Positions 819 to 63,054 are shown, counted from the stretch's first letter. The stretch is DNA of 64,000 nucleotides from an uncultured Acidimicrobiia bacterium (GCA_963774635.1 CAVZFS010000026.1:232636-296635); one strand, 5' to 3'. Translations and numbers: made by a program. The notes: generated by a model from the sequence alone, not told the origin.

Positions 819-2365
819 GTGTCGGACGATTCGCCACTCGAGCTCGGGGCCACCGGAGTCGCTGCTGCGGACGTGGTGTCCGTCGCTCGGCAGGACCGCC
901 GGGTGACGATCGGCGCAGATGCCCGCGAGGCCCTCGATCGTGGCGCCGCAGTCGTCGATCGACTCGTCCACTCGCCCGAGCCGGTGTACGGCGTCTCGAC
1001 CGGGTTCGGCGCACTGGCCAACACCGTGATCCCTCCGGAGCGGTCCGATGAGCTGCAGCTGGCGCTGATCCGCTCACACGCGGCCGGACTCGGTGCGGAG
1101 GTGGAGCGCGAGGCGGTGCGGGCGATGATGCTGCTGCGCGCCCGCAGCCTGTCGATGGGGTACTCCGGGGCACGCGCCGCCGTCGTCGAATCCATGGTGG
1201 CGTTGCTCAACGCCGGCATCACGCCAGTCGTGCCCGAGCACGGCTCGCTCGGCGCCAGTGGCGACCTGGCTCCGCTCGCCTCGGCGGCCCTCGTACTCCT
1301 CGGTGAGGGAGCGGCTCGCCGGCGCGACGGAACACTGATCGACGGCGAGACGGCGTGCCGCGAGGCAGGAGTCGCTCCGCTGGTCCTCAGGGCCAAGGAG
1401 GGCCTCGCGCTCATCAACGGCACGGACGGGATGCTGGGCATGGTCGTGCTGGCGCTCGCCGACCTCGACCTCCTGCTGGTGACCGCCGACATCGCCGGCG
1501 CGATGTCGACCGAAGCGCTCCTCGGCACCGACCGCGTGTTCGCCGAGGACCTGCTGGCAATGCGCCCACAGGTCGGCCAGCAGGTGAGCGCGGCGAACCT
1601 GCGAACCTGCTCACCGGTTCGGCCATCGTCGCCAGCCATCGCTATGGCGACGACCGCGTGCAGGACGCCTACTCGCTGCGCTGCACACCGCAGGTCCACG
1701 GGGCGGCGCGCGACACCGTCGAGTACGCCACTGCCATCGCCGCTCGCGAGCTGCGATCGTTCATCGACAACCCCGTCGTCCTGCCCGACGGGAGGGTCGA
1801 GTCGTGCGGCAACTTCCACGGCGCCCCGGTGGCCGCGGTCGCCGACTTCCTCGCCATCTCGATCGCCGATGTCGGCGCGATCAGCGAGCGGCGGACCGAC
1901 CGGTTGCTCGATCGCAGCCGAAGTCACGGCCTGCCCCCCTTCCTCAGCCCGGACGCCGGCGTGAACTCCGGGCTGATGATCGCCCACTACACCCAGGCCG
2001 CGATGGTGGCCGAGAATCGGCGCCTCGCCGTTCCGGCGAGCACGGACACGCTGCCGACCAGTGCGATGCAGGAGGATCACGTCTCGCTCGGCTGGTCAGC
2101 GGCGCGCAAGCTGCGAACGGCCGTGGCCAACCTGGCCCGCATCCTCGCCGTCGAGCTGACGGCGGCGTCGTGGGGGCTCGCGCTGCGGGCGCCGCTCGAG
2201 CCGGCGAGCGCCACGGCAGCGGTCGCCGACGCGGTGCGCGCCGTCGCCGGCGGCCCCGGCCCGGACGTGTGGCTCTCCCCCCGCCTGGTCGAGGTCGAAC
2301 GCCTCGTGCGCAGCGGGACGGTGAGGGCGGCGGCCGACGCCGCGCTCACAGCCCACCTGCAGTGA
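819..2365 (+). pseudogene. hutH: histidine ammonia-lyase, frame broken by an 8-bp tandem duplication
   Basis: ORFs 819..1964 and 1355..2365 together give a full-length HAL, with GSLGASGDLAPLA (the MIO-forming ASG), NFHGAP and QEDHVS. GCGAACCT occurs twice in tandem (1593-1600 and 1601-1608). Removing one copy reads QVSAANLLTGSAIVASHRYGDDRVQDAYSLRC in a single frame. Confidence 0.9.
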
Positions 2366-2404
2366 GCGCGCCGCGGGTTCCCACCGCTGTGCCACATTGG
2401 TGCC

Positions 2405-4069
2405 GTGGGCGCCGGTCCTCGTCCTGTTCGTGCTCCTCGTGGCTCGCAGTTGTCCTGTCGCGGCTGGCCTCAGGAGGCGGCGTACAGGATGCTGCAGAAC
2501 AACCTCGACCCGGAGGTGGCCGAACGCCCGGACGACCTGGTCGTGTACGGCGGAACCGGTCGCGCCGCCAGGTCCTGGGATGCCTTCGATGCGATGCTCG
2601 CCACGCTGCGCACGCTCGGCGACGACGAGACGATGCTCGTGCAGTCGGGCAAGCCCGTCGGCGTCTTCCGCACGCACGAGTGGGCGCCACGGGTGCTCCT
2701 CGCCAACTCGAACCTCGTCCCGGACTGGGCGACGTGGGACGAGTTCCGCCGTCTCGAGGCGGCAGGGCTGACGATGTACGGGCAGATGACGGCCGGCTCG
2801 TGGATCTACATCGGGACGCAGGGGATCCTGCAGGGCACATACGAGTGCTTCGCCGAGATCGCCCGCCGCCGCTTCGGCGGAACACTGGCCGGGACGATCA
2901 CCCTGACCGCGGGGCTCGGCGGCATGGGCGGGGCGCAGCCGCTGGCGATCACGATGAACGACGGCGTGGCGCTCGTCGTCGAGGTCGACCCGGCGCGAGC
3001 CCAGCGACGCATCGACACCCGCTACCTGGATGTGCTCGCCCCCGACGTGGACGCCGCAGTCGCCGAGGCCGTCAAGGCGCGTGACGAGCGGCGGGCGCTC
3101 TCGGTCGGTGTCGTCGGCAATGCCGCCGAGGTGCTCCCCCGCCTGCTGGATGCGGACTTCCCGGCCGACATCGTCACCGACCAGACGAGCGCCCACGATC
3201 CGCTGTCGTACGTGCCCGTGGACGTCACGCCGGAGGCGGCGGCAGAGATGGCTCGCACCGACGCGGCGACGTTCATCCGGCGCGCCCGCGAATCAATGGC
3301 CGTGCACTGCGCGGCGATGGTGGGCTTCCTCGACCGCGGCGCCGAGGTCTTCGACTACGGCAACAGTCTGCGCGTGGAGGCCGAGCTCGGTGGCTTCGAC
3401 CGCGCCTTCGCCTACCAGGGCTTCCTGCCTGCGTACATCCGCCCGCTGTTCTGCGAGGGCAAGGGGCCGTTCCGGTGGGTCGCGCTGTCCGGCGACCCGG
3501 CCGACATCGAGGCCACCGACCGGGCGGTCCTCGCCGAGTTCCCGCACGACGAGAGCCTGGCCCGCTGGATCCGCCTGGCCGGAGAGCGCGTCGCGTTCCA
3601 GGGTCTGCCGGCGCGCATCTGCTGGCTCGGCTACGGCGAGCGCCATCGCCTCGGGCTGCGCTTCAACGACATGGTCCGCACCGGGCAGCTCTCGGCTCCG
3701 ATCGTGATCGGCCGCGACCACCTCGACTCCGGTTCGGTGGCCTCGCCGTACCGGGAGACAGAGGCCATGGCCGACGGCTCCGACGCCATCGCCGACTGGC
3801 CACTGCTGAACGCTCTCGCCAACACGGCTTCCGGCGCGACGTGGGTGTCGATCCACCACGGCGGCGGCGTGGGCATCGGTCGCTCGATCCACGCCGGGAT
3901 GGTGGCCGTCGCCGACGGCTCCGACCTCGCTGCGCAGAAGCTCGAGCGGGTCCTCACCACCGACCCCGGCACCGGCGTCATCCGCCACGCCGACGCCGGC
4001 TACGACCTCGCCCTGGAGGTCGCCACCGAGCGCGGCGTCCGCCTCCCGATGACCGAAAACCGGTTTTGA
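2405..4069 (+). CDS. hutU: urocanate hydratase
   Basis: 554-aa ORF with a GTG start. RAPRG...[36 protein letters not shown] and [14 protein letters not shown] are diagnostic of urocanase. Confidence 0.95.
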
Positions 4070-4127
4070 ATCCCGGTCAATATCGAAAACGAGGGTGAAT
4101 CTTCCAGAGAACGGCAGACTGCCGCCG

Positions 4128-4919
4128 ATGCGGATCGAGGGTGACTTCCAGCGCGACGGCGCGGTCTGTGTGCGGGGCGCCGTCTCGCCGGAGCAGCTCG
4201 AGCTCGCCGCCGAGGCGATCGAGGCCAACCTGGCCGACCTCTCGCCGCTGGCCAAGCGGGCGAGCGCCGACAGCGACGGTGCCTTCGTCGAGGACTTCTG
4301 CAACTGGTCGCGCCTGCCGGCGATCGAGACGTTCATCCGCGAGTCGGGCGTCGCCGCCATCGCCGCCGAGCTGATGGGATCGACGACGGTCCGCCTCTAC
4401 CACGACCATGTCCTGGTCAAGGAACCGGGCACCCGTCAGCGCACGCCCTGGCACCAGGACCAGCCGTACTACAACGTCGAAGGACGTCAGAACGCGAGCA
4501 TGTGGCTGCCGGTCGATCCGGTGTCCCGCGCCTCGACCCTGGAGCTCGTCGCCGGTTCCCATCGCGGCGAGTGGTACATGCCCCGCACGTTCCTCGACGA
4601 TCAGGCCAAGTGGTTCCCCGAGGGCTCGCTGACCGAGCTGCCCGACATCGACGGCCGGCCCGACGATTTCACGATCCTCGGGTGGGAGCTCGAGCCAGGC
4701 GACGCCGTCTTCTTCCACATGCTGACGCTGCACGCCGCCGGCGGCGTGCCCGGCCGTGACCGCCGACGTGTCCTGTCGGTGCGCTTCCTCGGCGACGACG
4801 CGGTGCACGCACCACGCGGGTGGACGACGTCGCCGCCGTTCCCTGGACTCGTCGACGAGCTGCCGGCCGGCGCGCCGATGGACCACCCGCTGTTCCCCGT
4901 GCTCTGGACCCGGCCATGA
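4128..4919 (+). CDS. phytanoyl-CoA dioxygenase (PhyH) family Fe(II)/2-oxoglutarate oxygenase
   Basis: The track ORF is 4095..4919 and I prefer ATG 4128 as the start. TPWHQDQPYY and GDAVFFHMLTLHAAG...RRVLSVRF fit the PhyH-type fold. Confidence 0.8.
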   Translation: MRIEGDFQRDGAVCVRGAVSPEQLELAAEAIEANLADLSPLAKRASADSDGAFVEDFCNWSRLPAIETFIRESGVAAIAAELMGSTTVRLYHDHVLVKEPGTRQRTPWHQDQPYYNVEGRQNASMWLPVDPVSRASTLELVAGSHRGEWYMPRTFLDDQAKWFPEGSLTELPDIDGRPDDFTILGWELEPGDAVFFHMLTLHAAGGVPGRDRRRVLSVRFLGDDAVHAPRGWTTSPPFPGLVDELPAGAPMDHPLFPVLWTRP

Positions 4920-4921
4920 CG

Positions 4922-4986
4922 CATTGCGTTCCCCGGCCACGCAGGCCGCAGCTGGCCGCTCGCTCGCGTGCGCTCGCTCGCTCGCA
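4922..4986 (+). repeat. 65-nt interspersed intergenic repeat, family B, copy 1 (phyH-def spacer)
   Basis: CATTGCGTTCCCCGGCCACGCAGGCCG...CCGCTCGCTCGC..GCGCTCGCTCGCTCGCA matches the reverse complement of 11731-11795 at 58 of 65 positions. It contains a CCGGCC-ACGCA-GGCCGG hairpin and a (GCTC)n tract. Confidence 0.8.
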
Positions 4987-5004
4987 CCGTGCGAAGGGTT
5001 CACC

Positions 5005-5579
5005 GTGAGCGTTCGCGAGATCGCCACCGTCGGCCACCCGATCCTGCGCCAGCGGGCTCGCGACATCACCGCCGAGAGCTGGCCTCCGCCGAGATCCAGA
5101 CGCTCATCGACGACCTCATCGACACGATGCACGACGCCAACGGCGCCGGCATCGCCGCCAACCAGGTTCACGAGCCCGTCCGCGTCGCCGTGATCGAGGT
5201 CGACCACAACCCGCGCTACCCGTACAAGCCGCCGATCCCCCTGACCGTCGTCGTCAACCCAGTGCTCGAGCCGCTCGACGACGAGCTGGTCGAGATCAAC
5301 GAGGGGTGCCTGTCCGTGCCGAACCTGCGCGGCAACGTGTTCCGCCACGTCAACGTGCGCGTCCGCTACCTCGACCGTCACGGCATCGCCCACGACGAGG
5401 TCAAGCGCGGCCTCACCGCCGGCACGTTCCAGCACGAGTGCGACCACCTCGACGGGCGCCTGTTCCTCGACCGGGTCGCTGACACGACGACGCTGACGAC
5501 ATGGGAGCAGTTCGAGCGCTTCCACCGTGACGCCTTCGTGGCGCGCATCACCGAGTTCGTCGAGCGAGTGGGTTCCTGA
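5005..5579 (+). pseudogene. def: peptide deformylase, 1-nt frameshift near codon 24 as sequenced
   Basis: From GTG 5005, frame 1 reads VSVREIATVGHPILRQRARDITAE. The rest of the protein is in frame 0 (ELASAEIQTLIDDLIDTMHDANGAGIAANQVHEP...EGCLSVPN...QHECDHLDG). GAGAG at 5074-5078 where GAGGAG is expected explains the -1 shift. Confidence 0.85.
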
Positions 5580-5582
5580 CAG

Positions 5583-5648
5583 ATGCGGCCGGCGAAGGCG
5601 CTGGAGCGCCCGCCGTGCCGAATCGGGCGTTCACGTCTGAACGACGCG
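5583..5648 (+). repeat. ~66-nt interspersed repeat, family A (MIRU-like), single copy between convergent def and PPOX genes
   Basis: ATGCGGCCGGCGAAGGCGCTGGAGCGCCCGCCGTGCCGAAtCGGGcgTtCAcGTCTGAACGACGCG has the same core as 28080-28148 and the five tandem units at 36593-36925. The core folds as GGCG-AA-GGCGCT/AGCGCC-CGCC. Confidence 0.85.
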
Positions 5649-5650
5649 GT

Positions 5651-6289
5651 TCACAGCTCACCGGCGGCGCCACCGGGCCGCCACAGGTTCTCCTGCACAT
5701 CCCGCTCCCGGGCCGCCGCGATCACCTCGACGTCGACGTCGAGGCCGACGTGATCCTTGATCATGCACGCCGCCGACGGCAGTTCCTCGGCGGGAAGCCA
5801 CTGGTCGGACGACCACAGCTCGGCGCGCCGCAGCGCCTTGGCGCAGTGCACGTAGGCCTCAGCGACGGTGACGACGACCGTGACCTGTGCTGGCTTCCCG
5901 TCCACAGCGACGCGCCGGCCGAGCTCAGGGTCCGTGACGAGCTCGGCGGCGCCGTTCACGCGCAGCGTCTCGTCGAGACCGGGGATGAGGAACAGCAGCG
6001 CGACGTGATCGTTGGTCACGAGGTTCTGGAACGAGTCGAGGCGGTTGTTGCCCGAGAGGTCGGCCCATGCCAAGCGGTGCTCGTCGAGGACCTGCACGAA
6101 CCCGGGCGGGCCACCCTTCGGCGACCCGTCGCAGACGCCGTCGGCATCGGCGGTCGACAGCACGAAGAACGGTGACTTGGCGATGAAGTCGGCGCAGTGG
6201 GCGTCGAGGTGGTGGATGACCTTCTTGATCGGGTTGGCGCCCGGGGGCCGATAGTGCTCGCGGAGGTCGGCGACGGAGGCGAGTGGCAT
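5651..6289 (-). CDS. pyridoxamine 5'-phosphate oxidase family FMN-binding protein
   Basis: The track ORF is 5651..6358. I prefer the start at MPLASVADLREHY (6289). SPFFVLSTADADGVCDGSPKGGPPGFV and LLFLIPGLDETLRVNG fit the PPOX split-barrel family. Confidence 0.8.
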   Translation of the reverse strand: MPLASVADLREHYRPPGANPIKKVIHHLDAHCADFIAKSPFFVLSTADADGVCDGSPKGGPPGFVQVLDEHRLAWADLSGNNRLDSFQNLVTNDHVALLFLIPGLDETLRVNGAAELVTDPELGRRVAVDGKPAQVTVVVTVAEAYVHCAKALRRAELWSSDQWLPAEELPSAACMIKDHVGLDVDVEVIAAARERDVQENLWRPGGAAGEL

Positions 6290-6334
6290 CGCCCCAGTGT
6301 CGCAGGAGGGCTGCCGTCCGTACGCTGCGGATTC

Positions 6335-7132
6335 GTGGAGCACCGCCGTCTCGCCCACATCGACGTCCCGGTCGTCGGCATGGGCACCTCGCAGACGTTC
6401 GACGTGTCAACGGTCGATGCCCGGCGCCAGCAGGTCACCGACGCTGCGCTCGACCACGGCGCCAACTTCGTCGACTCCTCGCCGATGTACGGGCACGCCG
6501 AGCGCATCCTCGGCGCCACGCTCGGGGCGCGGCGCGACGAGGTGATCGTCGCGACGAAGGTGTGGACCCCCGACGACTCGGAGGCCGAGCGGCAGATCGA
6601 CGCATCGCTCGGCTTCTTCGGTGGCCACGTCGAGGTCTTCCAGATCCACAACCTCGTGGCGTGGAGGAGCCGCTTGGAGCAACTCGAGCGACGGCGTGAC
6701 GAGGGAGTGGTCGACGTCGTGGCGGCGACTCACTGGCGGGCCGACTCCTTCGACGAGCTGGAGACGGTGATGCGGACGGGGCGGATCGGCGCGATCCAGG
6801 TCCCGTACAACCCGCACGAGCGCGAGGTCGAGCGGCGCATCTTCCCGCTGGCCCAAGAGCTCGGGCTGGGCGTCATCCTGATGCGGCCGTTCGCCGCCGG
6901 CGGGCTGGTCGGTCGTGCGCCGAGCGCCGCCGAGCTGGCGCCGCTGGCCGAGTTCGGCGTCACGACGTGGCCCCAGGCGCTGCTCAAGTACGGGCTCAGC
7001 CACCCCGCGACCTCGGTGTCGATCCCGGCGACGACGAAGCCCGAGCGGATGGTCGAGAACGCCGCCGCCGGTGACGGTCCGTGGTTCGGCGCGGATGAGA
7101 AGGGTCTCGTCGAACGGCTGGCGAGTGCCTAG
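6335..7132 (+). CDS. aldo/keto reductase
   Basis: The track ORF is 6197..7132. GTG 6335 gives [50 protein letters not shown] and [13 protein letters not shown] are AKR motifs. Confidence 0.85.
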
Positions 7133-9599
7133 CTATCACTGCGAGTTGGCGTGGCTCGGCGACGACCAGGCCGTCGCCGATGTGCTGGTGACCATCGACG
7201 GCGACCGCATCGCCTCCGTGGATCCGGGCGGGAGTCCGCCAGCCGATGCGACCCGACTTCGCGGTCTGACGGTCCCGGGGTTCGCCAACAGTCACAGCCA
7301 TGCCTTCCATCGCGCTCTGCGCGGTCGGGCGCAGGCGGGTACCGGTTCGTTCTGGACGTGGCGTGAGCAGATGTACGAGGTGGCGGCCAGCCTCGACCCG
7401 GATCGCTACCGCGATTTGGCGCGGGCCGTCTTCGCCGAGATGGTGCAGGCCGGCATCAGCGCCGTCGGCGAGTTCCACTACCTCCACCACGGGCCCGGTG
7501 GCGTGCCGTACGACGACCACAACGCGATGGGAGCAGCGTTGATCGCCGCGGCCACGGAGGCGGGGCTGCGCATCACGCTGCTCGACACGTGCTACCTGCA
7601 GGGCGGCATCGACGTCGAGCTCGATGAGACTCAGCGCCGCTTCTCCGACGGCGACGCGCTGGCCTGGGCCACGCGAGCATCGGCGTTGCAGGACGCGCCG
7701 ACAGTTCGTATCGGCGCGGCCATCCACTCCGTGCGCGCCGTCGATCCAGCGGCGATCGAGGTGGTGGCGGCCTGGGCGGGCGAGCGCGGTGCCCCGTTGC
7801 ACGCTCACGTGTCGGAGCAGCCGGCCGAGAACGAGCAGAGCGTCGCGGCGTTCGGCCGCACGCCGATCCAGCTCCTCGCAGAGCGAGGTGCACTCAGCGA
7901 ACGGTTCACGGCCGTCCACGCCACGCACGTCACCGAGGACGACCTCGACGCACTCGGCGGCGCCGACAGCTGGTGCTGCCTGTGCCCGACCACGGAGCGC
8001 GATCTCGCCGACGGCATCGGTCCTGCGCGGGCGATGCGCGACGCGGGGGCGCACCTGACGCTCGGCAGCGACTCCCATGCGGTGATCGATCTGCTCGAGG
8101 AAGCACGGGCGGTCGAGCTCGACGAACGGCTCGCCTCCGGCGTGCGTGGGAGCCACGATGCGCCGTCGCTGCTACGGGCCGCGACGACGCACGGCCACGA
8201 AAGCCTGGGATGGCGTGACGCAGGACGGATCGAACCGGGCGCTTTGGCCGACTTGACGACGATCGCCCTCGACACCGTGCGCACTGCGGGCGGCGGTCCG
8301 GAGCACAGCATCGAGATGGCGGTGTTCGCGGCAACGGCAGCCGATGTCCACCACGTCGTCATCGGCGGTCGCGTCGTCGTGTCCGACGGGCACCACGTGT
8401 CTATCGACGTGGCAGCCGAGCTGGCCGACGCGCTGCCGATGAGCACCGTGGTCGACGGCATCGGGCTGCTCGTCACGAACACGGACGAGGGCGAGCTCGC
8501 CGACGCGTGGCTCGTCTTCGACAACGACCATGTCCTGGCTGTCGGCACGGGCGTCGCGCCGCACGCCGACGAGCGGATCGATGCGGCCGGGCGCTGTGTG
8601 ATCCCCGGGTTCGTCGACAGCCACACGCACCTCGTGTTCGCCGGCGATCGCAGTGCCGAGTTCGCGGCGCGGATGGCTGGGGCGCCGTATGCGGCGGGGG
8701 GCATCAACGTCACGATCGCCGCCACGCGTGAGGCGTCGGACGACGCCCTTGCGACGGGCGCCGCGGCCCGCTTGGCGGAGTGCCGCCGGGCGGGCGTCAC
8801 GACGGTCGAGATCAAGTCCGGGTATGGAGGGACCGTCGACGACGAGTCACGGCTGTTGCGCATCGGTCGCACGTTGACGGACGAGACCACCTTCCTCGGC
8901 GCGCACGTCGTGCCGCCGGAGTTCGAGGGTCGAGCCGACGACTACGTCGCGCTCGTCTGTGGCGAGATGCTGGCTGCAGCGGCACCGCATGCCCGCTGGA
9001 TCGATGCCTTCTGCGAGCACGGCGCGTTCGACGCCGACCAGTGCCGAGCCGTGCTCGAGGCAGGTCGAGCGGCCGGGCTCGGCATGCGCCTGCACGCCAA
9101 CCAGCTCGGGTTCGGACCCGGCGTGCAGCTCGCCGTCGAGCTCGGGTGCGCATCTGCCGACCACTGCACGTACCTCTCGGACGCGGACGTCGAGGCCCTG
9201 GCGAGCGGCACCACGGTGGCCACGTTCCTCCCGGCCACCGACTTCTCGACCCGCCAGCCATATCCCGACGCCCGGCAGGTCATCGACGCTGGAGCGACCG
9301 TGGCGCTGGCCACCAACTGCAACCCGGGGTCGAGCTACACGACTTCGATGTCGTTCGTCATCGCCCTCGCCGTGCGCGACCTGAGGATGACGGCAGCCGA
9401 GGCCGTCACGGCCGCCACGCTCGGCGGAGCGCGTGCCTTGCAGCGCGAGGATATCGGATGGCTCGGTCCCGGATCGCGAGCCGATCTCGTCGTGCTCGAC
9501 GCGCCGAACTACTCGTACCTCGTCTACCGCCCAGGCGTGCCGCTGATCTCCGAGTGTTTGGTCGGGGGATGCCCGTCGGCAGACACTCCGATCGGCTGA
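7125..9599 (+). CDS. hutF-hutI: formimidoylglutamate deiminase (HutF) and imidazolonepropionase (HutI) in one uninterrupted reading frame
   Basis: The N-terminal ~438 aa have [34 protein letters not shown] and [12 protein letters not shown] (HutF). From ATG 8439, [12 protein letters not shown]...[15 protein letters not shown]...ATNCNPGSS is HutI. There is no stop between them. I chose GTG 7125 by comparison with HutF N-termini; ATG 7095 and TTG 7146 are alternatives. Confidence 0.85.
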
Positions 9600-9612
9600 A
9601 ACACTCGGATGG
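9548..9612 (+). repeat. ~65-nt repeat, family C, copy 1; hairpin-forming element spanning the hutI 3' end and the convergent hspR spacer
   Basis: CTCCGAGTGTTTGG...CACTCCGATCGGCTGAAACACTCGGATGG aligns with 31001-31071. CCGAGTGTTT and AAACACTCGG form a 10-bp stem. The last ~17 hutI codons ([17 protein letters not shown]) lie inside the element. Confidence 0.75.
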
Positions 9613-10011
9613 TCAGGGCTCGGGGTCGGGACGCCGGGGGAAGGTCTCGCCGAACGGGGCGACCGCCTGGCGCAGCGGGACAAGGTCGCGGCGCTGCTTG
9701 CGCACTGCCTCGGCCTCGGCATGCTCGGCCTTGCGGACGGCGTCCGCCAGCTCGCTGCGCAGCCGGGCGTTCTCCTCCTCCAGCTGCATGACGCGCCGGA
9801 TGCCTTCGAGGTTCATGCCCGACTCGGCGAGCTCGGAGATGCGGCGCAACACCTCGATGTCCGCATCGCTGTAGCGACGGTTGCCACCCGACGTACGGGC
9901 CGGGCGCACGAGCCCGCGACGCTCGTAGATGCGCAGTGTCTGCGGGTGCATGCCTGCCAGCTCGGCGGCGACCGAGATGACGTACACCGCTTGGGTCCGG
10001 CGTCGCATCAT
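9613..10011 (-). CDS. hspR: MerR-family heat-shock repressor HspR
   Basis: 132 aa. YVISVAAELAGMHPQTLRIYERRGLVRPARTSGGNRRYSDADIEVLRRI is a MerR-type HTH. It is the last gene of the dnaK operon, and its start overlaps the dnaJ stop (ATGA). Confidence 0.9.
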   Translation of the reverse strand: MMRRRTQAVYVISVAAELAGMHPQTLRIYERRGLVRPARTSGGNRRYSDADIEVLRRISELAESGMNLEGIRRVMQLEEENARLRSELADAVRKAEHAEAEAVRKQRRDLVPLRQAVAPFGETFPRRPDPEP

Positions 10012-11136
10012 GACGTGGTCTCCCGTGTTCTCGACGCGGCGGCCGTGGCGAGCTGCTCGATCGCCGTGCGCTCCTCCTCGGAGAGCTGCGTCGGCACGGC
10101 CACGTCAATCGTGACGATCAGGTCGCCGGTGCCCTTCTTGGCGGCGATGCCCTTGCCCTTGACGCGATGGCGGCTGCCCGGCTGCGTGCCCGCCTTGATG
10201 CGCAGCGTCACGGGCGGACCTTCGAGCGTCGGTACGGCGATGTCGGCTCCAAGGGCAGCCTCGGCGAACGTCACCGCGAACGCGTGTCGTCAGGTCGTTG
10301 CCGCTCCTGCCGAACAGTGGATGGGAGCCCACGTGGATGAGGACGAGCAGGTCTCCGGCCGGGCCACCATTGCGGCCGGGAGCGCCCCGACCCTTCAGGC
10401 GGATCGTCTGTCCATCCGACACGCCGGCGGGGATCCGGGCCTGCACGTCACGGGCGCGCTTCTCGACGCCGGATCCTCGGCACGTCGGGCACGGATCCTC
10501 GATCACGGTCCCCGCGCCACCGCACCGCCGGCACGGCGACGAGAACGAGAACAGCCCCTGGTTGTCGTCGATGACGCCGCGCCCACCGCACTGCGGGCAC
10601 AGCTTGGGTGTCGTGCCCGGTCGCGCTCCCGAGCCGTGGCACGTCGAGCACTGCGCATCGGACGTGAGGTGCAGCGTCGTCGTCAACCCGCTGGCGGCAT
10701 CGACGAAGTCGAGCGTGAGCTCGGCTTCGACGTCGGCCCCTCGGCGCGGTCCGACACCCGACGACGCGCCCCCACCCGCTCGATTTCCCCGGCCGCGGCC
10801 GAACATCTGGCCGAACAGATCGCCGAGGTTGCCCACGTCGGCGTCGTTCATGTTGAACGTGAACCCGCCCGGTCCCGGACCTCCCGGGCCGGCCATCGGA
10901 CCGAGCTTGCGGACCTCGTCGTACTCCGACCGCTTGGTCTCGTCACCCAGCACGTCGTAGGCGGCCGACACCGACTTGAAGCGCTCCTCGGCCTGCGCGT
11001 CACCCGGGTTCTTGTCGGGATGCAGCTCGCGGGCCAGCTTGCGGTAGGCCTTGGTGATCTCCTTCGCCGTCGCCGTCTCGGGGACGCCGAGGACGGCGTA
11101 GTAGTCCTTCTCGAACCATTCCCGTTGCGCGGCCAT
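10008..11136 (-). pseudogene. dnaJ: chaperone DnaJ, 1-nt frameshift as sequenced
   Basis: ORFs 10105..11136 and 10008..10274 together make DnaJ. The J domain (DYYAVLGV...HPDKNPGD), a G/F region, four CxxCxGxG motifs and the C-terminal domains are all present. The frames meet at GRSGNDLTTRVR / VTFAEAALGADIAVPTLEG. One extra nucleotide around 10274-10278 breaks the frame. Confidence 0.9.
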
Positions 11137-11148
11137 GCCCGAGATCCG

Positions 11149-11721: not shown

Positions 11722-11730
11722 CTCGCCTCA

Positions 11731-11795: not shown

Positions 11796-11800
11796 AGCGG

Positions 11801-13669
<1,869 letters not shown>

Positions 13670-52425: not shown

Positions 52426-52575
52426 GGCATTCCTCCTCGAAGGTGCGCTCGAAGGCCACGGGACGAGGCCCGTCACGATCTTCCAGCGCGGCGCTACCGC
52501 ATCGCTTCCGCCGCGCTACCGCGGCGCGTGCCGAGCGTCCGATGAGTTCGGCGTGCGCCCGTCGTCAGAGATCGC

Positions 52576-53048
52576 ATGGACGCTGAGAAGATGACTGCGA
52601 CGACGAAGATCGACGCCGCGCCTGCCGCCGTGTTTGCGGTGCTGGCCGACCCCAAAGCGCACGTCGCCATCGACGGCACTGGCTGGGTGCGCGAGTCCCT
52701 CGACGCCGCCCCGTTGACGAGGACCGGCCAGGTGTTCCGCATGGCGATGCATCACGAGAACCACCCTGACAAGGACTACAAGATGGCCAACCAGGTGGAG
52801 GTGTTCGATCCGCCGCGCGCGATCGCCTGGCGACCGGGACAGGAGTCGCCGGAGACGGGAGAGCTCGGGTTCGGCGGTTGGGTCTGGCGCTACGACCTGG
52901 AAGCGACTGGCCCGTCCCAGACCACGGTGACGCTCACCTACGACTGGTCAGCCGTTCCACCCAGGTGCGGGAGATCATCCAGTTCCCGCCGTTCGGCCAC
53001 GACCATCTCGAGCACTCCTTGAAGCACCTGTCCGACCTGGTTCCGTAA
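52576..53048 (+). pseudogene. SRPBCC (polyketide cyclase/dehydrase-like) protein, 1-nt frameshift near the C-terminus as sequenced
   Basis: AAPAAVFAVLADPKAHVAIDG...TVTLTYDW fits the fold. After SAVPP the track ORF becomes RCGRSSSSRRS. One frame over it reads QVREIIQFPPFGHDHLEHSLKHLSDLVP* with a stop at 53046-53048. The break is in the C-run at 52960-52962. Confidence 0.75.
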
Positions 53049-53103
53049 GGCGCGGAATCCGATCGACAGGTCCGAGGTCTGGTGGAGGAAGCGGCCGCGG
53101 AAG

Positions 53104-54207
53104 TCACCGACGAACCGCCTCCCACCGGCATCCGACGTCGACGAACCCGATCCGTTCGTACCAGCGACGCGGCCAGTCGTCGGCGCGAGCGAGGAGCCAA
53201 ACCACGTCGCACCCGGCGGCGCGGGCCCGACGCACTGCGTCACCGACGAGGGCCGCGGCATGTCCCTGCCTGCGTGCGGACGGCGCCGTCATCACCCCGT
53301 CGATCGCCGCCGTCGCCCCGTCGATGCGCAGCTGGGTACCGGCCACCGGGACACCGTCGGCGCCCAGCACGGCGAGGTCGACGACCCGAACGTGGGCCGC
53401 GGCGAAGGACTCACGGCGGATGAGGTCGCCGACGGCGCCGTCATCGATGCCCGGGATCTCCCGCCGCCAGGTGGGCGCCCACAGGCCGGCCATCACCTCT
53501 TGGGTCACCGCCACCACCCGTACCACCGGCTCAGGTGGTACCGGTGCGGTTACGTCGAACACGTGGAAGCGCAGCTCCTCGACGTCCCAGTCGAGATCCG
53601 TGGGCGGTGGACTGAACATGACGATCCGGCGGTGCGGGAACGCGGCGAGGACCCGGTCGGCCTCAGCCACCATGGCGGCGGCGTCGATGTCGCCGGTGAA
53701 CCACACCGAGTTGTGCTCCCACGACGCGGGCACGCGCGGGTCGAGGCAGGCCACGCCGCCCTCGACGGGCATCACAACGGCGGCGCGCCGTTCGGCGAGG
53801 CTGCGCTCGAAGGCGGCCGCCCGAGCCAGGGGATCGCCGATCGGCGGGATCCCGGTGGGCGGGCCGAAGGCCCCGCTCGGGCCGGGGCGGTAGGGCACGA
53901 CACTGGTGACCGCGGCGACCGGCAACGGCCCGTAGAGGTGCGGAAAGCGCATCGACGCCGGGTCGCCCGGCACGCCCGACTCCCACCGCACGTCGTCGCG
54001 CAGCCGCGCCGGATCGATGGCGAGGACGAGCAAGTCCTGCCGGCCGGCGAAGAGCCGCTGCGCCGGCAAGGCGACTTGGTCCGGCCCAGACAGGTGGACA
54101 AAGCCCTCCGTGACCAGGGAGCCGTCCACCACGGCGCCGGCATCGAGCGCGACCCGCCACTGCGCCGCGCCGATGAGATGCAGGAGCGGCTCGGTCGCCC
54201 CGATCAC
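53104..54207 (-). CDS. DUF952 domain fused to a GNAT-type acetyltransferase-like domain
   Basis: 367 aa in one frame. The N-terminal part, LLHLIGAAQW...GFVHLSGPDQV...LLVLAIDPARL...VRWE...FPHLYGPL, is DUF952-like. The C-terminal part, IDGVMTAPSARRQGHAAALVGDAVRRARAAGCDVVWL, is a GNAT acetyl-CoA site. Confidence 0.75.
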   Translation of the reverse strand: MIGATEPLLHLIGAAQWRVALDAGAVVDGSLVTEGFVHLSGPDQVALPAQRLFAGRQDLLVLAIDPARLRDDVRWESGVPGDPASMRFPHLYGPLPVAAVTSVVPYRPGPSGAFGPPTGIPPIGDPLARAAAFERSLAERRAAVVMPVEGGVACLDPRVPASWEHNSVWFTGDIDAAAMVAEADRVLAAFPHRRIVMFSPPPTDLDWDVEELRFHVFDVTAPVPPEPVVRVVAVTQEVMAGLWAPTWRREIPGIDDGAVGDLIRRESFAAAHVRVVDLAVLGADGVPVAGTQLRIDGATAAIDGVMTAPSARRQGHAAALVGDAVRRARAAGCDVVWLLARADDWPRRWYERIGFVDVGCRWEAVRR

Positions 54208-54225
54208 GAATCGTCCATCCGGAGG

Positions 54226-55098
54226 TCAGGCGCGGCGGCCGGTGTGGCGTTCGATGAGTGCAGCGATGTCGTCGGGTCGCTCCTCCACGAGGTAGTGCTG
54301 TCCGTCGGGCACGACGTGCACGGAGACGTCGGACCACCCGAAGTTCGATCGCAGGTTGGCGGCCACGTCCTCCAGGACCGGACCGAACACGTGCTCACCG
54401 CCCGCCAGCAGTAACGGCACAGCGATCGGATCGCGGAGCGCGTCGTTGAACGTCACGTTGGTCGGGATGGCGCGATACACCTCGAACGCGGCCCGCAGGT
54501 GGGCAGCATCGCCGTACGCCGCGGCGTAGTGGCGCACGTCCTCCGCGGTGATCACGCCGTCAGCTCGCGTCCCGATGTCGAAGAAATAGCGGAAGTACGT
54601 CTCCTGCCGGTCAGCGACGAGCGCCTCGGGCAGACCAGGCACCATGTGGAACTGGCCGTGCCACAGCGGGACATCCAGGTCCGCGGTCGCGAACGGCTCG
54701 ACTCCCGGGATCAACGTCTCGATGATCGTGACGCTCCGCGCCGCCGTGGGATGAAGCCGGCCGTAGGCGTAGGCCACCCAGCCACCGATGTCATGCCCGA
54801 CGACGTCCACCGGACCGATACCGAGCCGCTCGACGAGGCGGTGCAGATCACCCGCCATCGTCGCCGCGTCGTAGCCGTCTCGTGGCGCATCGGAACCTCC
54901 GACGCCACGGAGGTCCACCGCCACCACGGTCGAGGTCCTCGCCAGGCGATCCATCACGCCGCGCCACTCGTACCAGTCCTGCGGAAACCCGTGAATGAGC
55001 AGCACGCCCGGGCCCGTGCCCCCACGCACGAGGTGCAACGAGACCTCGCCGACGTCGACGGTTTGGGACTCGAAGCCGCGCATGTCGGCGGGCTCCAC
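54226..55098 (-). CDS. alpha/beta hydrolase (epoxide hydrolase / haloalkane dehalogenase-like)
   Basis: 290 aa. LLIHGFPQDWYEWR, GHDIGG and DGQHYLVEERPD are typical of the family. Confidence 0.85.
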   Translation of the reverse strand: MEPADMRGFESQTVDVGEVSLHLVRGGTGPGVLLIHGFPQDWYEWRGVMDRLARTSTVVAVDLRGVGGSDAPRDGYDAATMAGDLHRLVERLGIGPVDVVGHDIGGWVAYAYGRLHPTAARSVTIIETLIPGVEPFATADLDVPLWHGQFHMVPGLPEALVADRQETYFRYFFDIGTRADGVITAEDVRHYAAAYGDAAHLRAAFEVYRAIPTNVTFNDALRDPIAVPLLLAGGEHVFGPVLEDVAANLRSNFGWSDVSVHVVPDGQHYLVEERPDDIAALIERHTGRRA

Positions 55099-55161
55099 GG
55101 AGACGCAACCTATCGAGACGGCAACGCGAGCACCATCCCGGGGTGCGGTAGCACGACTGGG

Positions 55162-56044
55162 TCAGTGCAGCGGCTTCTCGAACCAGTGGTGGGCGTACAG
55201 CTCGCTGTTGAACGGTGGGACCTCGACGTAACCCGCCGACTGGTACAGCGAGATGGCCTCCACCAGAGTGCGGTTCGTCTCCAGGCGGACAGCCGTGTCG
55301 CCGTGGGCCGCAGCGAGCGACTCCAGCTCGCTGAGGAGCCGTCGGCCAACCGACAGTCCCCGTGCGGACGGGGCGACCCACATTCGCTTGATGTACGCCG
55401 GCTCGCCGTCCTGCCACTTCAGCGCACCACAACCGATCGCCTCGTCGTGGAGGCGGGCGACCACGAACAGCCCGGCCGGCGGCCGCATCTCGGCGACATC
55501 CGGGTGCAGGCTGAGGGCGGCATCGAACCCGGCGTCGAAGCGCTCGTCGAGCTCGGCGAAGTACGACCGCAGGCACGCTTGAGCCTCGTCGCTGGTCGGG
55601 TCGACGACGTCGACGCGTACCAGCGCGGCAGTGAGGAGGCGGTCAACGCGGGTCATCGCCTCCACGAGCACGTCGCGCTGCGCTGGTGACAGCGGTGCGA
55701 GCAGCGCGGCGGCGAGGGCGTCGCTGCGCTCGTCCAGCAGCCGCCGCTCGGCGCGACCCGCGGGCGGTCAAGCGGGCGACTCGGATGCGGCGATCCCGCT
55801 CGCTGCTGCCGATCTCGACGAGTCCCTCGTCCTCCAGTCCTCGCAACAGGCGGCTGACGTAGCCGGCGTCGAGCTGGAGGCGCTCACGCAGCGTCCGCAC
55901 ATCGCAGCCATGGTCACCGATCTCCCACAGCAGGCGGGACGCGCCCAGCGGGCGGTTGCGGGCCAGGTAGTGGTCGTGCAGGGCACCGACGCGCTGCGTC
56001 ACCGTCCGGTTGAAGCGCCGCACGCACTCGACCTGCTGCTGCAT
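55162..56044 (-). pseudogene. bifunctional MarR-type HTH + GNAT acetyltransferase, 1-nt frameshift between the domains as sequenced
   Basis: The MarR part comes from ATG 56044 (MQQQVECVRRFNRTVTQRVGALHDHYLARNRPLGASRLLWEI...DRRIRVARLTARG). The GNAT part is in another frame (RAERRLLDERSDALAAALLAPLSPAQRDVLVEAMTRV...IKRMWVAPSARGLSVGRRLL). An extra C in the run 55757-55759 (a G-run on the coding strand) separates them. Confidence 0.8.
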
Positions 56045-56082
56045 ATCTCTGACGTTAGTCAAGCATTCGGAGCCCGATCGGA

Positions 56083-57099
56083 TCAGCGCACGTCGGGACC
56101 GACCGGTTCGCCGTCGACGATCTGATCGAGGTACTCGCTCATGCCGATGCCGACGTGCCCATTGCACTCGTAGCGGGTCATCGCCTCGGTGATCCTCGTC
56201 ATCAACTCGTTGCCGTCGGGATCGGTGCGTCGGTTGCGCAACGGGATCAACGACAGCACCGTGCCGGTCACCGCATACGTGTCGTGATCGGTGCGCACGT
56301 TGCAGCGCATCGCCGTCTGGTAGCGGTCCTCGTCCCAGTCGGACTCGATGGTGCACTCACGGATCAGGTGGTACTCATCGCCGACGAGCACCATGCCGGA
56401 GGACCGACCGCCGACGATCGAGATCATCATGGCGAACTCTGTGGAGAACGTCATCGGCAGCCAGCGGTACCAGCTGATCGCTTGCCAGTAGCGCGGTCCC
56501 CACGACTTGTCGCGCAGGCCGAGACCGTCGAGGTCGATCACCTCGTCGCCCACCACGATCGTGCCGGTCACCGCGCAGTGCTGCTCGTAATGCGCCTTGG
56601 CGAAGCTCCTGCCGGCCTCCTGCTCCACCTCCGTCCCGTCGGCGTGGACGGGTTTGCCGCCGTACATCGGTGACACGCCCCGGAAGTCGAGATCGACCTC
56701 GCATGGCTCCCACGGGTTGGCCTTGAACGCGAGCCGCGGCTCCGCCATCTGGCGCGGCTCGTCGAGCAGGCAGACCTTCCCGCGGTAGCGGACCTTGAGG
56801 TGGTGGAACGGCTGGATCACCTCGATCGAGAGGCCGCCGGCTTCCATCTTGTCGTTGCTGTCGATCGCCGGCCGGCCGTACACGAACCCGACCCGACCGC
56901 CCGGCAGGTAGATGCACACCGTCATCTCCGCGTAGCCCTCGTTGACCCGGTTGCCGAGCCGGAACCAGCCACCAACCTCGCGCCGAGCGTCGAAGGCATT
57001 CAGGTACATCGACTCGTTGTAGTTCTCGGCCGCGTCGGGCTCATGGGGGTACTCGTCCTCCGGCTCGAGCACGGTCACAACGTCGGTGCGCCTCGACAT
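56083..57099 (-). CDS. conserved hypothetical protein (beta-rich, no family confidently recognised)
   Basis: The track ORF is 56083..57207 and the start is at MSRRTDVVTVLEPEDEY. The 338-aa sequence is non-repetitive with G/C-rich third positions. The motif DKSWGPRYW suggests a conserved actinobacterial family. Confidence 0.7.
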   Translation of the reverse strand: MSRRTDVVTVLEPEDEYPHEPDAAENYNESMYLNAFDARREVGGWFRLGNRVNEGYAEMTVCIYLPGGRVGFVYGRPAIDSNDKMEAGGLSIEVIQPFHHLKVRYRGKVCLLDEPRQMAEPRLAFKANPWEPCEVDLDFRGVSPMYGGKPVHADGTEVEQEAGRSFAKAHYEQHCAVTGTIVVGDEVIDLDGLGLRDKSWGPRYWQAISWYRWLPMTFSTEFAMMISIVGGRSSGMVLVGDEYHLIRECTIESDWDEDRYQTAMRCNVRTDHDTYAVTGTVLSLIPLRNRRTDPDGNELMTRITEAMTRYECNGHVGIGMSEYLDQIVDGEPVGPDVR

Positions 57100-57230: not shown

Positions 57231-58061
57231 ATGACGGGCGACCGACTCCGCACGTCGGTCAGCGTGTTCGGCACGGTGTTCCGCAACCCCGGGCTGCGGC
57301 GCGTCAACCTCGCCTACGCCGGTTCGGTGATCGGAGACTGGGCCTACACGACGGCGGTCGCCATCTGGGTGTTCGAACGTGGTGGTGCCGGTGCCGTCGC
57401 GATCCTCGCCACGGTGCGCTACTTCATCCAGGCGGTGCTCGCCCCGGTGATGTCGACGCTCGCCGATCGTTTCGACAAGCGACGAGTCATGATCGGCGCC
57501 GACGTCGCCAGGGCGGTGTTGATCGTTGCCGGGTTCGTGGTGATCTCCGCTGACGGCCCGATCGGAGCCGTGTTCGCATTGGCCTGGTCGGCCGCCATCA
57601 TGTCGCTGGCGTTCGGGCCCGCCCAGGCGTCGTTGCTGCCCGGCCTCGCGTTCGAGCGCTCGCTCCACGCGGTCTGACCCTGCTCGGCCGGGTCCCGATG
57701 CTCGCCGTCCTACCGCCGGTGACGCGTAGAGCGTCTCGCCCTCCGGCTCGTCCCGAGCACGGTGCCCGCCGGGGCGATCGTCTTCGAGCAGGGTGACCCA
57801 GGCGACCGGTTCTGGATGATCGAGCGCGGGATCGCTGCCGTGAGCATCAACGGCGAGCACGTTCGCGACCTCGGCCCCGGCGACTCGTTCGGTGAGATCG
57901 CCCTCCTCCGCAACGTCCCCCGCACGGCCACCGTCAGCGCGGTGGACGACCTCGTCATGCAGGGCATCGAGCGGGGCGACTTCCTGGTCGCGGTGACGGG
58001 GCACGGTGAGTCGAACGAGCTCGCCGAATCCGTCGTCGAGCGCTGGCTCGCGCTGAGCTGA
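57231..58061 (+). pseudogene. remnant of an MFS transporter with a C-terminal cyclic-nucleotide-binding domain (internal deletion plus frame breaks)
   Basis: ATG 57231 opens a 4-TM MFS N-terminus (LAYAGSVIGDWAY...MSTLADRFDKRRVM...) that stops at 57675-57677. Frame 2 then reads LLGRVPMLAVLPPVT. From 57726, frame 0 reads VERLALRLVPSTVPAGAIVFEQGDPGDRFWMIERG...FGEIALL...RTATV, a cNMP-binding domain, to 58061. Confidence 0.65.
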
Positions 58062-61569: not shown

Positions 61570-61579
61570 ACCTGTAGGC

Positions 61580-62245
61580 GTGAGCGCCCCCCGCACGCTG
61601 TACGACGACCTGACCGACGACCTGCTGTACGACCCGGCCGTCGGGCGTTCGACGATGATGGGCTACCCCTGCGTGCGCCGCGCCGGACGCTTCTTCGCCT
61701 CGTTCGACACGCGGGCCGAGGCGCTGGTCCTCAAGCTGTCGCGCGAGCGCGTCACCGAACTGGTCGCCGACGGCACCGGTGAGCCGTTCATCCCGAACGG
61801 CCGTGTGTTCCGCGAGTGGGTGACGATCCCTGAGCCCGACCCACACGTGTGGGAGCAGCTCCTCGCCGAGGCGCGCGACTACGCCGGACCCGGGCCGGTC
61901 GTACGCGGCAAGTACGACGAGGAACTCGCCGACCGCATTCGCGAAGTGCTGTCACAGCTGGGCGTCGACGGCGTGCGCGAGCAGAAGATGTTCGGTGGCC
62001 TCGCCTTCCTCGTCGATGGCCACATGGCCATCGCCGCCAGCCGTGAGGGCGGCGTGTTGTTGAGCGTCGACCGCGGCGACACCGAAACGCTGCTCCAGAA
62101 GCCGCACACCCGACCGATGGTGATGCGCGGCCGCGAGATGGCGGGCTGGCTGCGCGTCGACTCCGCTGGCGTGCGCACGAACCGCCAGCTCACTCCGTGG
62201 GTCAAGCGAGGCGTCGACCGAGCCCGCTCCCTACCGCCGAAGTAG
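61580..62245 (+). CDS. TfoX/Sxy N-terminal-domain family protein (two tandem TfoX_N-like halves)
   Basis: The track ORF is 61340..62245 and the start is at GTG 61580. The second half, VREQKMFGGLAFLVDGHMAIAAS...LLSVD, is TfoX_N-like. The first half (MMGYPCVRRAGRFFASFD...LVLKL) has the same pattern. Confidence 0.7.
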   Translation: MSAPRTLYDDLTDDLLYDPAVGRSTMMGYPCVRRAGRFFASFDTRAEALVLKLSRERVTELVADGTGEPFIPNGRVFREWVTIPEPDPHVWEQLLAEARDYAGPGPVVRGKYDEELADRIREVLSQLGVDGVREQKMFGGLAFLVDGHMAIAASREGGVLLSVDRGDTETLLQKPHTRPMVMRGREMAGWLRVDSAGVRTNRQLTPWVKRGVDRARSLPPK

Positions 62246-63054
62246 CACCGGCCGCGGCGGGCCGTCAGGGGCCCGTCGCTGCGGGTGCTTGGTCCATCGA
62301 CGCTCGCGGCGTCGACGAGTGGTCGGTCAGGGACGGTGATGAGTCCGCGGTTGGGTCGGTCGAGGTCGAACGAGATGAACAGAATGAGGAGCACGACGAC
62401 GGTGGCGACCAGCGACATGAGCAGTCCCCGCCCGAGCAGCGCGAGGTACAGGGCCAGTGCGCCAAGGGCGACGGCGGCGCCGAAGAGTTGGAGGGCCAGC
62501 ACCGTTGGCGGAACCCGATTGCGCACCGACGCCAATCGGTCGGAGTGGGCGTCGATCATCTCATTCAACGTCTCGACATAGAGTCGAGGTGCGCTTCCGA
62601 CTGGATCGGCGGTCACGGCGTTCCCTGCGAGGCGCCACAGCTCACGTTGAAGCTCGTCGATTCGCGCTGATGCCGCGCGGAACTCGGCCGATTCGGGGAC
62701 ATGGTCGGCGAATGCGAGGGCCGCATCGGCATATCGGACGAGCAGGTCGAGCGATGCCGAGCGGGTTGGTTCGGCCAACAACTGTGCCCGCAGGAACGTC
62801 GTGCCGATGGTGTCGGCCTCGTGCACGACAAGCGCACGCCGCGTGTCGTACCTGCCGACCGCCATGGTGAGTCCGAAGGCGAGCAGCAAACCGACGAGCC
62901 CGAGCAACGTCCCCTGCACGACGCCCACCGGCTCGTGGCGGACATTCGGCCGGTCTCGCAGCCGACGCCCGATGACGGTCCCGATCGCGACGGTGCCTCC
63001 GACGATGACGCACAACGCGAGGGTGACCGTCAGCGTGTTCAGGCGGAAGAACAT
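61879..63054 (-). CDS. DUF4239 (bestrophin-like) membrane protein; as sequenced the ORF overruns 366 nt into the convergent gene
   Basis: The start is at MFFRLNTLTVTLALCVIVGG (63054). HEADTIGTTFLRAQLL and two C-terminal TM helices fit DUF4239 (~250 aa). After ...ITVPDRPLVDAA the frame continues as low-quality sequence to 61879. An adjacent frame stops at 62265-62267. Confidence 0.6.
   Translation of the reverse strand: MFFRLNTLTVTLALCVIVGGTVAIGTVIGRRLRDRPNVRHEPVGVVQGTLLGLVGLLLAFGLTMAVGRYDTRRALVVHEADTIGTTFLRAQLLAEPTRSASLDLLVRYADAALAFADHVPESAEFRAASARIDELQRELWRLAGNAVTADPVGSAPRLYVETLNEMIDAHSDRLASVRNRVPPTVLALQLFGAAVALGALALYLALLGRGLLMSLVATVVVLLILFISFDLDRPNRGLITVPDRPLVDAASVDGPSTRSDGPLTARRGRCYFGGRERARSTPRLTHGVSWRFVRTPAESTRSQPAISRPRITIGRVCGFWSSVSVSPRSTLNNTPPSRLAAMAMWPSTRKARPPNIFCSRTPSTPSCDSTSRMRSASSSSYLPRTTGPGPA

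Follow-up and report, generated by a model that had tools for sequence, protein, structure and literature searches.

Decaying bacterial genomes, such as those of Mycobacterium leprae and of recent host-restricted pathogens, accumulate nonsense codons and larger deletions, lose codon bias, and show a lower coding density; core genes such as rpoC are spared, and the lesions recur in close relatives. Programmed frameshift sites, as in prfB, dnaX, and the IS3-family transposases, are conserved across relatives and lie at specific slippery motifs. The fragmentation of genes by indel errors is well documented for long-read assemblies (PMC9262707, PMC8103633, PMC12007338, and bioRxiv 10.1101/2021.08.23.457338), and a large Nanopore-only study of soil metagenome-assembled genomes (MAGs) included one round of Medaka polishing directed specifically against indel errors (PMC12313526).

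We analyzed a 64-kb stretch of DNA (the window) from the 50-contig, 5.08-Mb, 70% G+C MAG of an uncultured Acidimicrobiia-type actinobacterium. The window carries ~13 lesions, comprising the 12 listed in an earlier note on this DNA and at least one more. As in long-read assemblies (Nanopore or PacBio CLR), one-base indels split, truncate, and fuse ORFs throughout the genome, marker completeness is lowered despite high contiguity, and accurate assemblies of the same taxon lack the breaks; unlike the homopolymer errors of long reads, however, the indels are not enriched in homopolymers, and insertions are about as frequent as deletions. The genome resembles one in reductive decay in that a large fraction of its genes carry frame-disrupting lesions, but the nonsense codons, eroded coding signal, spared core genes, and shared lesions that mark such decay are all absent here. 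As in programmed frameshifting, successive parts of a single protein are encoded by ORFs in different frames, yet these sites occur in one assembly only and in heterogeneous contexts. We concluded from these sequence comparisons that the frame breaks in the window very probably reflect one-base errors in the consensus of a long-read metagenome assembly that was not polished, rather than gene decay.

Frame breaks in the window and their state in close relatives

As references we used L084, L085, and L087 (97.5 to 99% nucleotide identity to the window), three independent contigs that probably come from the same species. L084 spans window positions 1 to 12453 (97.5 to 99% identity), L087 spans 10507 to 32033 (98.5% identity), and L085, a JGI contig whose platform is unstated, was compared over 4.1 kb (97.9% identity). 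A tie between the ENA assemblies of the near-identical contigs and the Nanopore-only study cited above is only a lead. Sites beyond the reach of these contigs were judged against same-genus relatives.

In hutH (histidine ammonia-lyase, 819 to 2365, plus strand), one base is absent at 1607 to 1609, a gap seen against all six relatives compared and against L084 and L085. The N- and C-terminal halves of the protein lie in different frames and split the Pfam Lyase_aromatic profile at 3-249/249-465, and intact 515-amino-acid (aa) homologues are known at 98% identity. The def paralogue (peptide deformylase, about 5005 to 5579, plus strand) lacks one base at 5076, after ~24 codons, with Pep_deformylase positions 21 to 153 in the second frame; its counterpart in L084 is an intact 191-aa protein. 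In the hutF/hutI-type amidohydrolase pair (plus strand), one extra base at 8438, seen against five of five relatives, removes the TGA of the ATGA overlap and so joins both amidohydrolase domains in a chimeric ORF of 894 aa (6915 to 9599); L084 encodes the two proteins in separate genes (448 and 386 aa). Within the dnaK-grpE-dnaJ-hspR operon, dnaJ (minus strand) has one extra base at 10279 to 10280 relative to five of the six relatives, which splits DnaJ_C at 1-89/90-152 and leaves the final 63 positions in another frame, and the DnaJ of L084 is intact (375 aa). L084 is thus intact at 1607, 5076, 8438, and 10279, and its coding-region indel differences from the window are confined to those sites; L085 shows a single gap in the 4.1 kb compared, at 1607. 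The lesion additional to the 12 concerns an AraC-family regulator (14732 to 15686, minus strand), in which one base is absent at 15583 to 15585, at the N-terminal end of the gene or immediately before it, as seen against G010, G013, and L087.

Four further lesions fall within L087. The lipoprotein gene (about 20006 to 20483, plus strand) is a single ORF in G010, G013, and L087, whereas in the window a cluster of small indels at 20193 to 20227, in a Thr/Ser linker encoded by a 12-nucleotide repeat, places the signal peptide with its lipobox and the C-terminal domain in different frames. The aldo/keto reductase (AKR) gene (about 23952 to 24924, plus strand; Aldo_ket_red positions 2 to 288 of 291 matched) has one extra base near its C terminus at 24896 to 24897, seen against three of three relatives and L087; its stop codon is lost, and the out-of-frame tail reaches 25007, into the convergent gene. 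A stand-alone cyclic nucleotide monophosphate (cNMP)-binding protein (28201 to 28656, plus strand), its domain identified with Pfam, has one extra base after that domain at 28560 to 28561 (four of four relatives and L087), which alters the C-terminal helix. In the Fe-S oxidoreductase gene (Fer4/CCG, about 28669 to 30979, plus strand), the frame changes inside a (CAC)n stretch at 28696 to 28722, and the start and first ~15 codons are out of frame with the remainder; the N terminus MASHTETAE...GGLRPHHLALGLG is encoded in one frame in G010, G013, and L087 and requires two in the window. L087 is intact at 15583, 20193 to 20227, 24897, 28560, and 28696 to 28722, so that the three near-identical contigs are intact at all nine of the window lesions that they cover.

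The same-genus relatives are intact at the remaining sites. The SRPBCC/polyketide-cyclase-like gene (52576 to 53048, plus strand) lacks one base in a C run at 52959 to 52962; its last ~30 residues are in another frame, Polyketide_cyc2 is matched at positions 3 to 110 of 142, and the gap at about 52960 is seen against five of five relatives, including the fragmented MAG G015. In the MarR-GNAT fusion gene (55162 to 56150, minus strand), one extra base at 55753 to 55767 lies between the MarR and GNAT parts, which occupy separate ORFs, and seven of seven relatives align through the site with a one-base gap. At 57651 to 57728 (plus strand), where a major facilitator superfamily (MFS) remnant precedes a cNMP-binding gene, ~0.8 kb is absent relative to G010 and G013, and position 57728 holds an extra base in comparison with two of two relatives; MFS_1 is matched at positions 3 to 104 of 347 only. 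The gene formerly annotated as DUF4239 is Bestrophin-like (about 62263 to 63087, minus strand) and has one extra base near its C terminus at 62307, as seen against G005 and G032. Its stop codon is lost, the ORF continues to 61879 across a convergent TfoX-like gene, and the relatives' ending ...MDQ.PAA.G.* sits in another frame of the window.

All seven frame breaks that the earlier note called clear are present relative to the relatives, the five that it called probable are broken as well, and the relatives have a single frame at the sites covered. It had further grouped with the breaks two genes that lack canonical start codons. The description was correct, but the same sequence state is found in L087, and relatives likewise conserve the N-terminal extension of one of the two, a Suc_Fer-like gene; for that reason the two genes are not part of the phenomenon. 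Several other candidates were rejected. L084 has the differences at 6310 and 4124 too, and the frame changes at 10034 (dnaJ/hspR), 31832, 44581, 45593, 61118, and 61566 are ordinary same-strand gene junctions.

Each assembly carries its own breaks. Private one-base indels of L087 lie at 17509, 22002, 28069, 28841, 31115, and 31557, all of them positions at which the window is unbroken, and G013 has 76 private one-base insertions in 153 kb.

Extent and spectrum of the indels

To count frame breaks genome-wide, we used a conservative caller based on a codon-usage Viterbi model, a simple GC3 frame plot being too noisy. The genome-wide count of frameshifted coding sequences suggested by the earlier note came to 1278 frame switches in 897 genes. 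This is 25 per 100 kb; for fragmented MAGs of the genus that resemble short-read assemblies the figure is 3.3 per 100 kb, and for L084 and L085 it is 0, so that the excess noticed in the window by the note extends to the whole genome. Individual contigs have between 0 and 73 switches per 100 kb.

The genome (G000) also contains ~102 kb of near-identical contig pairs. The gaps between the members of these pairs, most of them within genes, number 278 of one base, 42 of two bases, and 10 of three bases; some of these pairs are strain variants, so that part of the disagreement could be real. The proposal that the sequencing was homopolymer prone was not supported, as the run-length distribution at the 278 one-base gaps is close to random expectation: unrepeated bases account for 63% (60% expected) and runs of three or more for 14% (10% expected). 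Seven window sites have a near-identical reference; the runs at these sites do not exceed two bases, and at about half of the sites no base is repeated. At the eighth single-base site, about 62307, which was compared only with relatives at 78 to 81% identity, there is no long run either. One-base insertions and deletions are about equally frequent (22 versus 14). Because the indels are not associated with homopolymers, the error spectrum is not of the classical homopolymer-deletion, or textbook nanopore, type.

Origin of the breaks

Taken together, the lesions are private, genome-wide, nearly all of one base, and without signs of selection, and one of them lies in an indispensable single-copy gene. 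We infer that they arose by consensus error and not by mutation and that the platform was a long-read one. The consensus would retain one-base insertion and deletion errors at an estimated rate of roughly 0.25 to 0.65 per kb, residual errors of the kind typical of long-read assembly with insufficient coverage or polishing. Each such error would shift the frame and could thereby split a gene (hutH, dnaJ, and MarR-GNAT), truncate or extend a gene end (def, AKR, cNMP, SRPBCC, DUF4239, and Fe-S), or fuse neighboring genes (hutF/hutI). Any single site may nevertheless be a real strain-specific mutation.

If the lesions were instead true mutations in the sampled population, they would represent recent, massive pseudogenization, through reductive decay or in a hypermutator lineage. 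The deposited sequence does contain the lesions, and about 9 of the 13 in the window lie toward gene ends, as could also be expected of real variants that are tolerated. Genome-wide, however, the breaks in 355 genes with a single break are spread uniformly along the gene (chi-square P = 0.74). Nor does pseudogenization agree with the absence of the lesions from three contigs at 97.5 to 99% identity, with the hundreds of one-base gaps by which replicated regions of one assembly disagree, or with the difference in break density between contigs. Credible private nonsense codons numbered 0 in 41,685 testable codons, whereas the same 153 kb has ~22 private frame-changing coding indels; the sole candidate, at C26:213259, falls in a nonhomologous, noncoding stretch. 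Of the genome, 91% is scored as coding, and codon bias and family-level conservation are full to either side of each break. At a divergence of 11%, real evolutionary indels dominate intergenic regions, so that a comparison of private indel density between coding and noncoding DNA says little about the origin of the breaks.

The earlier note had also argued from the presence of normally essential genes among those hit. For def this argument is weak because a second, intact copy is present on contig C14, as pseudogenization would allow; it is better made from rpoC, the only copy of which (contig C7) changes frame at profile positions 522 to 524. Essential genes were sought by family searches, which replaced motif searches that had located rpoC only. 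A search of the genome for rpoB gave no match, and since rpoC lies at a contig end, rpoB is probably unassembled. The other large essential genes examined, secA, gyrB, ileS, and infB, are intact (four of five), which pseudogenization would accommodate; the expectation is ~1.5 at the raw call rate and ~4 at the detection-corrected rate, so that their intactness fits the raw rate but represents somewhat fewer breaks than the corrected rate predicts. On balance, the private lesions, the genome-wide excess, the disagreeing internal replicates, the lack of nonsense codons, the even spread of breaks, and the broken rpoC uphold the note's preference for indel errors, and we regard pseudogenization as very unlikely. 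In its strongest form, with an uncultured soil population of the Acidimicrobiia losing genes en masse to very recent indels (e.g., because a repair function had disappeared), hundreds of frameshifted genes segregating, and RpoC made as two translated parts, it would be extremely unlikely. The indels could also stem from haplotype misjoins, rather than raw read error, during consensus collapse of coassembled strains, especially in repeats. The many contig pairs at 94 to 99% identity and the overlapping contig ends in G000 are compatible with this, as are the lipoprotein and Fe-S lesions, which are multi-indel clusters in short tandem repeats, but the majority of the lesions affect a single base, standing alone in unique, nonrepetitive sequence, and we consider strain collapse very unlikely indeed as the main source; it would still be an assembly artifact, differing in mechanism alone. 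Programmed ribosomal frameshifting or transcriptional slippage would restore the proteins in vivo. Nothing specific favors it here beyond the argument that some apparent bacterial pseudogenes are functional (PMC11017572). The genes are in a single frame in relatives and same-species contigs at every site, both +1 and −1 changes occur, no shared motif was seen around the eight single-base sites with a reference, and about 900 genes are affected, all of which makes such recoding scarcely credible.

Consequences for use of the genome

As consensus errors, the breaks are an artifact with nothing biologically new in them, and the finding is mainly a warning about this genome. About 1 in 5 genes is detectably broken, and with correction for the sensitivity of the caller the proportion is probably ~1 in 3. 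The default assumption for any apparent pseudogene, split gene, or novel fusion in this assembly, and likewise for a long overlapping ORF or a candidate site of programmed frameshifting, should be that it is an artifact, the 894-aa “double amidohydrolase” being an example of an artifactual fusion. Because the genome serves as a species genome, truncated and chimeric proteins will spread from it into protein databases. The same caution applies to several highly contiguous yet “incomplete” relatives, G013, G009, G011, and ENA contig_81285. More generally, highly contiguous MAGs in the genus tend toward low marker completeness.

Frame breaks in the window and in same-species contigs

We aligned the window with the corresponding syntenic DNA from six same-genus relatives (G010, G013, G011, G012, G004 and G015; further relatives were added later), listed by window position every indel whose length was not divisible by three, and ran Pfam scans on separate ORF pieces to see where profiles are cut. 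The earlier note had listed 12 frame breaks, and all 12 proved to be breaks relative to the relatives; an additional lesion at 15583-15585 brought the total to at least 13 in 64 kb, or about one per 5 kb. One base is missing from hutH at 1607-1609 (against six of six relatives; profile split into 3-249 and 249-465), from def at 5076 and from the SRPBCC gene near 52960 (five of five relatives). An extra base interrupts dnaJ at 10279-10280, within the dnaK-grpE-dnaJ-hspR operon at 9.6-13.7 kb (DnaJ_C split into 1-89 and 90-152), and likewise the AKR gene (24896-24897), the cNMP-binding gene (28560-28561), the MarR-GNAT gene (about 55753-55767; seven of seven relatives) and the DUF4239 (Bestrophin-like) gene (about 62307; two of two). 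At the hutF/hutI junction, an extra base at 8438 (five of five relatives) removes the TGA of the ATGA overlap and so creates a single 894-aa ORF. The lipoprotein gene carries a cluster of small indels within a 12-nt repeat (20193-20227), and the Fe-S gene is broken near its N terminus (28696-28722). The MFS-cNMP remnant has an extra base at 57728 and is missing ~0.8 kb at 57651-57658, corresponding to most of an MFS transporter gene in G010 and G013, a loss explicable by a true deletion or by collapse during assembly. Several further changes of frame on one strand, such as that between dnaJ and hspR at 10034, were ordinary gene junctions.

A protein search with HutH read through its break (X at the broken codon) found intact homologues of 515 aa and 96-98% identity, named Acidimicrobiales, Acidimicrobiia or Ilumatobacteraceae, and we then compared the contigs of the matched proteins. 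The names of the homologues, together with the dnaK-grpE-dnaJ-hspR operon, assign the genome to the uncultured Acidimicrobiia. L084, a 523-kb contig probably of the same species (ENA ERZ25039504 contig_39227), is 97.5-99.0% identical to window positions 1-12453, has every gene intact there, and shows coding-region indel differences from the window only at 1607, 5076, 8438 and 10279. A 5-kb JGI metagenome contig, L085 (97.9% identity), has one gap in 4.1 kb, at 1607. A third contig, L087 (ENA ERZ25039531 contig_21543; 98.5% identity over 10507-32033), lacks the breaks at 15583, 24897 and 28560 as well as those in the lipoprotein linker and at the Fe-S N terminus, and has private one-base indels of its own at 17509, 22002, 28069, 28841, 31115 and 31557, positions at which window and outgroups are both unbroken. 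Thus, two assemblies, probably of one species, break different genes. Differences from G010 and G013 at 6310 and 4124 were rejected as errors because L084 shares them, making them real species-level differences.

Frame switches across the genome and its relatives

A codon-usage model, trained with 1047 long ORFs of high GC3 from the source assembly (50 contigs, 5.08 Mb, 69-70% G+C; marker completeness, 90.3%; contamination, 2.75%), underlay a seven-state Viterbi segmentation (six frames plus a non-coding state). The frame-switch caller was deliberately conservative, demanding neighbouring segments on one strand, each 80 nt or longer, and an upstream frame open for at least 45 nt beyond the switch; in the window it recovered 5 of the ~13 lesions with no false positives. 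The genome-wide count of broken genes that the earlier note had proposed bore out the excess, with 1278 switches in 897 genes (25 per 100 kb; 0 to 73 per 100 kb on individual contigs).

The same caller made 6 calls in 179.5 kb (3.3 per 100 kb) of three fragmented, short-read-like MAGs of the genus (G004, G015 and G016), 1.7 per 100 kb in G014, and none on L084 or L085. It made 3 calls on L087, 6 on L086 (ENA ERZ25039531 contig_81285) and 48.8 per 100 kb in G013 (5 contigs, 75% complete). G013 has 76 private one-base insertions versus 10 deletions in 153 kb, and a single 2.7-kb gene on contig C10 of G009 carries six insertions. Relatives serving as references (G013:C5, G009:C10 and L086) are themselves heavily error laden. 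On L086, the clpB and amidohydrolase genes are split and PhyH and def are fused. Among the 26 species genomes of the genus, many have 5-40 contigs but are just 56-90% marker "complete"; across the genus, high contiguity accompanies low marker completeness.

Consensus error versus gene decay

Within the source assembly, ~102 kb lies in contig pairs that are 94-99% identical, among them contigs overlapping at their ends (the end of C26, the window's contig, with the start of C17, and the start of C26 with C5). The members of these pairs disagree at 278 one-base, 42 two-base and only 10 three-base gaps, mostly within coding sequence. In 153 kb aligned three ways (source assembly, G010 and G013), the assembly has ~22 private frame-changing coding indels and, among 41,685 codons that could be tested, not one credible private in-frame stop, the sole nonsense candidate lying in a non-homologous, non-coding stretch. 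Real frameshifts that are tolerated should cluster at gene ends, whereas breaks were uniformly positioned along the 355 single-call genes that were 900 nt or longer (chi-square P = 0.74). The only rpoC copy (C7:80965-83338) is split across two frames at profile positions 522-524 and is also truncated where the contig ends; the assembly yielded no rpoB. The secA, gyrB, ileS and infB genes are intact, in keeping with the ~1.5 hits expected from the raw call rate. Codon bias and family conservation are kept on both sides of every break, and 91% of the assembly scores as coding. Taken together, six tests (replicates, spectrum, positions, indispensable genes, coding signal and relatives) make consensus error far likelier than mutation and uphold the earlier preference for assembly error over pseudogenisation. 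We concluded that the frame breaks are very probably assembly consensus errors and that those of the window are not a biological feature. Any single lesion may still be a real strain-specific variant, a caveat strongest for the C-terminal lesions (AKR, cNMP, SRPBCC and DUF4239) and the ~0.8-kb MFS deletion.

Two of the arguments originally offered for error did not hold. The indels had been linked to homopolymers, yet the seven sites with a near-identical same-species reference are single bases or runs of two, genome-wide run lengths at the 278 one-base gaps match random expectation, and insertions are about as common as deletions. The break in def carries no argument from essentiality, since an intact paralogue lies on C14. 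PMC9262707, PMC8103633, PMC12007338 and bioRxiv 10.1101/2021.08.23.457338 describe for long-read assemblies an indel effect exactly as seen in this genome, and a large Nanopore-only soil MAG study used one Medaka round to lower indel errors (PMC12313526). The present assembly is probably also a long-read one.

Duplicated sequence in the assembly (C30/C50, C13/C24, C19/C28, C6/C12, C36/C42/C35, C26/C17 and C26/C5) represents strain variants or overlapping contig ends. With ~100 kb present twice, the bin is partly redundant, which affects the genome size and contamination figures.

Unusual gene starts, repeats and a variable region

The two genes reported to lack canonical starts do lack them, and comparison with relatives and L087 separates this from the indel phenomenon. 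The Suc_Fer-like gene has a coding-like N-terminal extension of ~60 codons (25705-25912, minus strand) without ATG, GTG or TTG; the start-less extension is conserved in G010, G011, G012 and L087 and begins within 43 nt shared with the 3' end of the upstream JmjC gene. Translation might begin at a non-canonical codon, or might depend on coupling or recoding with JmjC. At 16751-16832 (minus strand), the alpha/beta-hydrolase-SnoaL gene has an ATG (MSIF...) in G012 and G013; both same-species assemblies read ...TSSIF... and lack any canonical start ahead of the domain, perhaps through a start codon substitution or the use of a rare start.

An interspersed 44- to 47-nt element with 9-nt inverted termini, CTGTCCGTA-N26-TACGGACAG, has 98 copies in the assembly and possibly represents a small mobile element resembling REPs or MITEs. 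Of its window copies, that at 212-255 is missing from the orthologous site in L084 and L086, and that at 34917-34960 is missing from G010. The intergenic region that follows hutU holds a second short repeat (4050-4100), with short matches (query 3205-3282) of 80-100% identity on many contigs of the source assembly, G010 and G013. Finally, a possible variable region or island of 15 kb lies at ~40700-56050. It includes MFS, glyoxalase, SnoaL, SRPBCC and MarR-GNAT genes, as well as a large ORF (49145-51837); the syntenic position in G010 and G013 lacks this stretch, and its genes are scattered on other contigs of the relatives.
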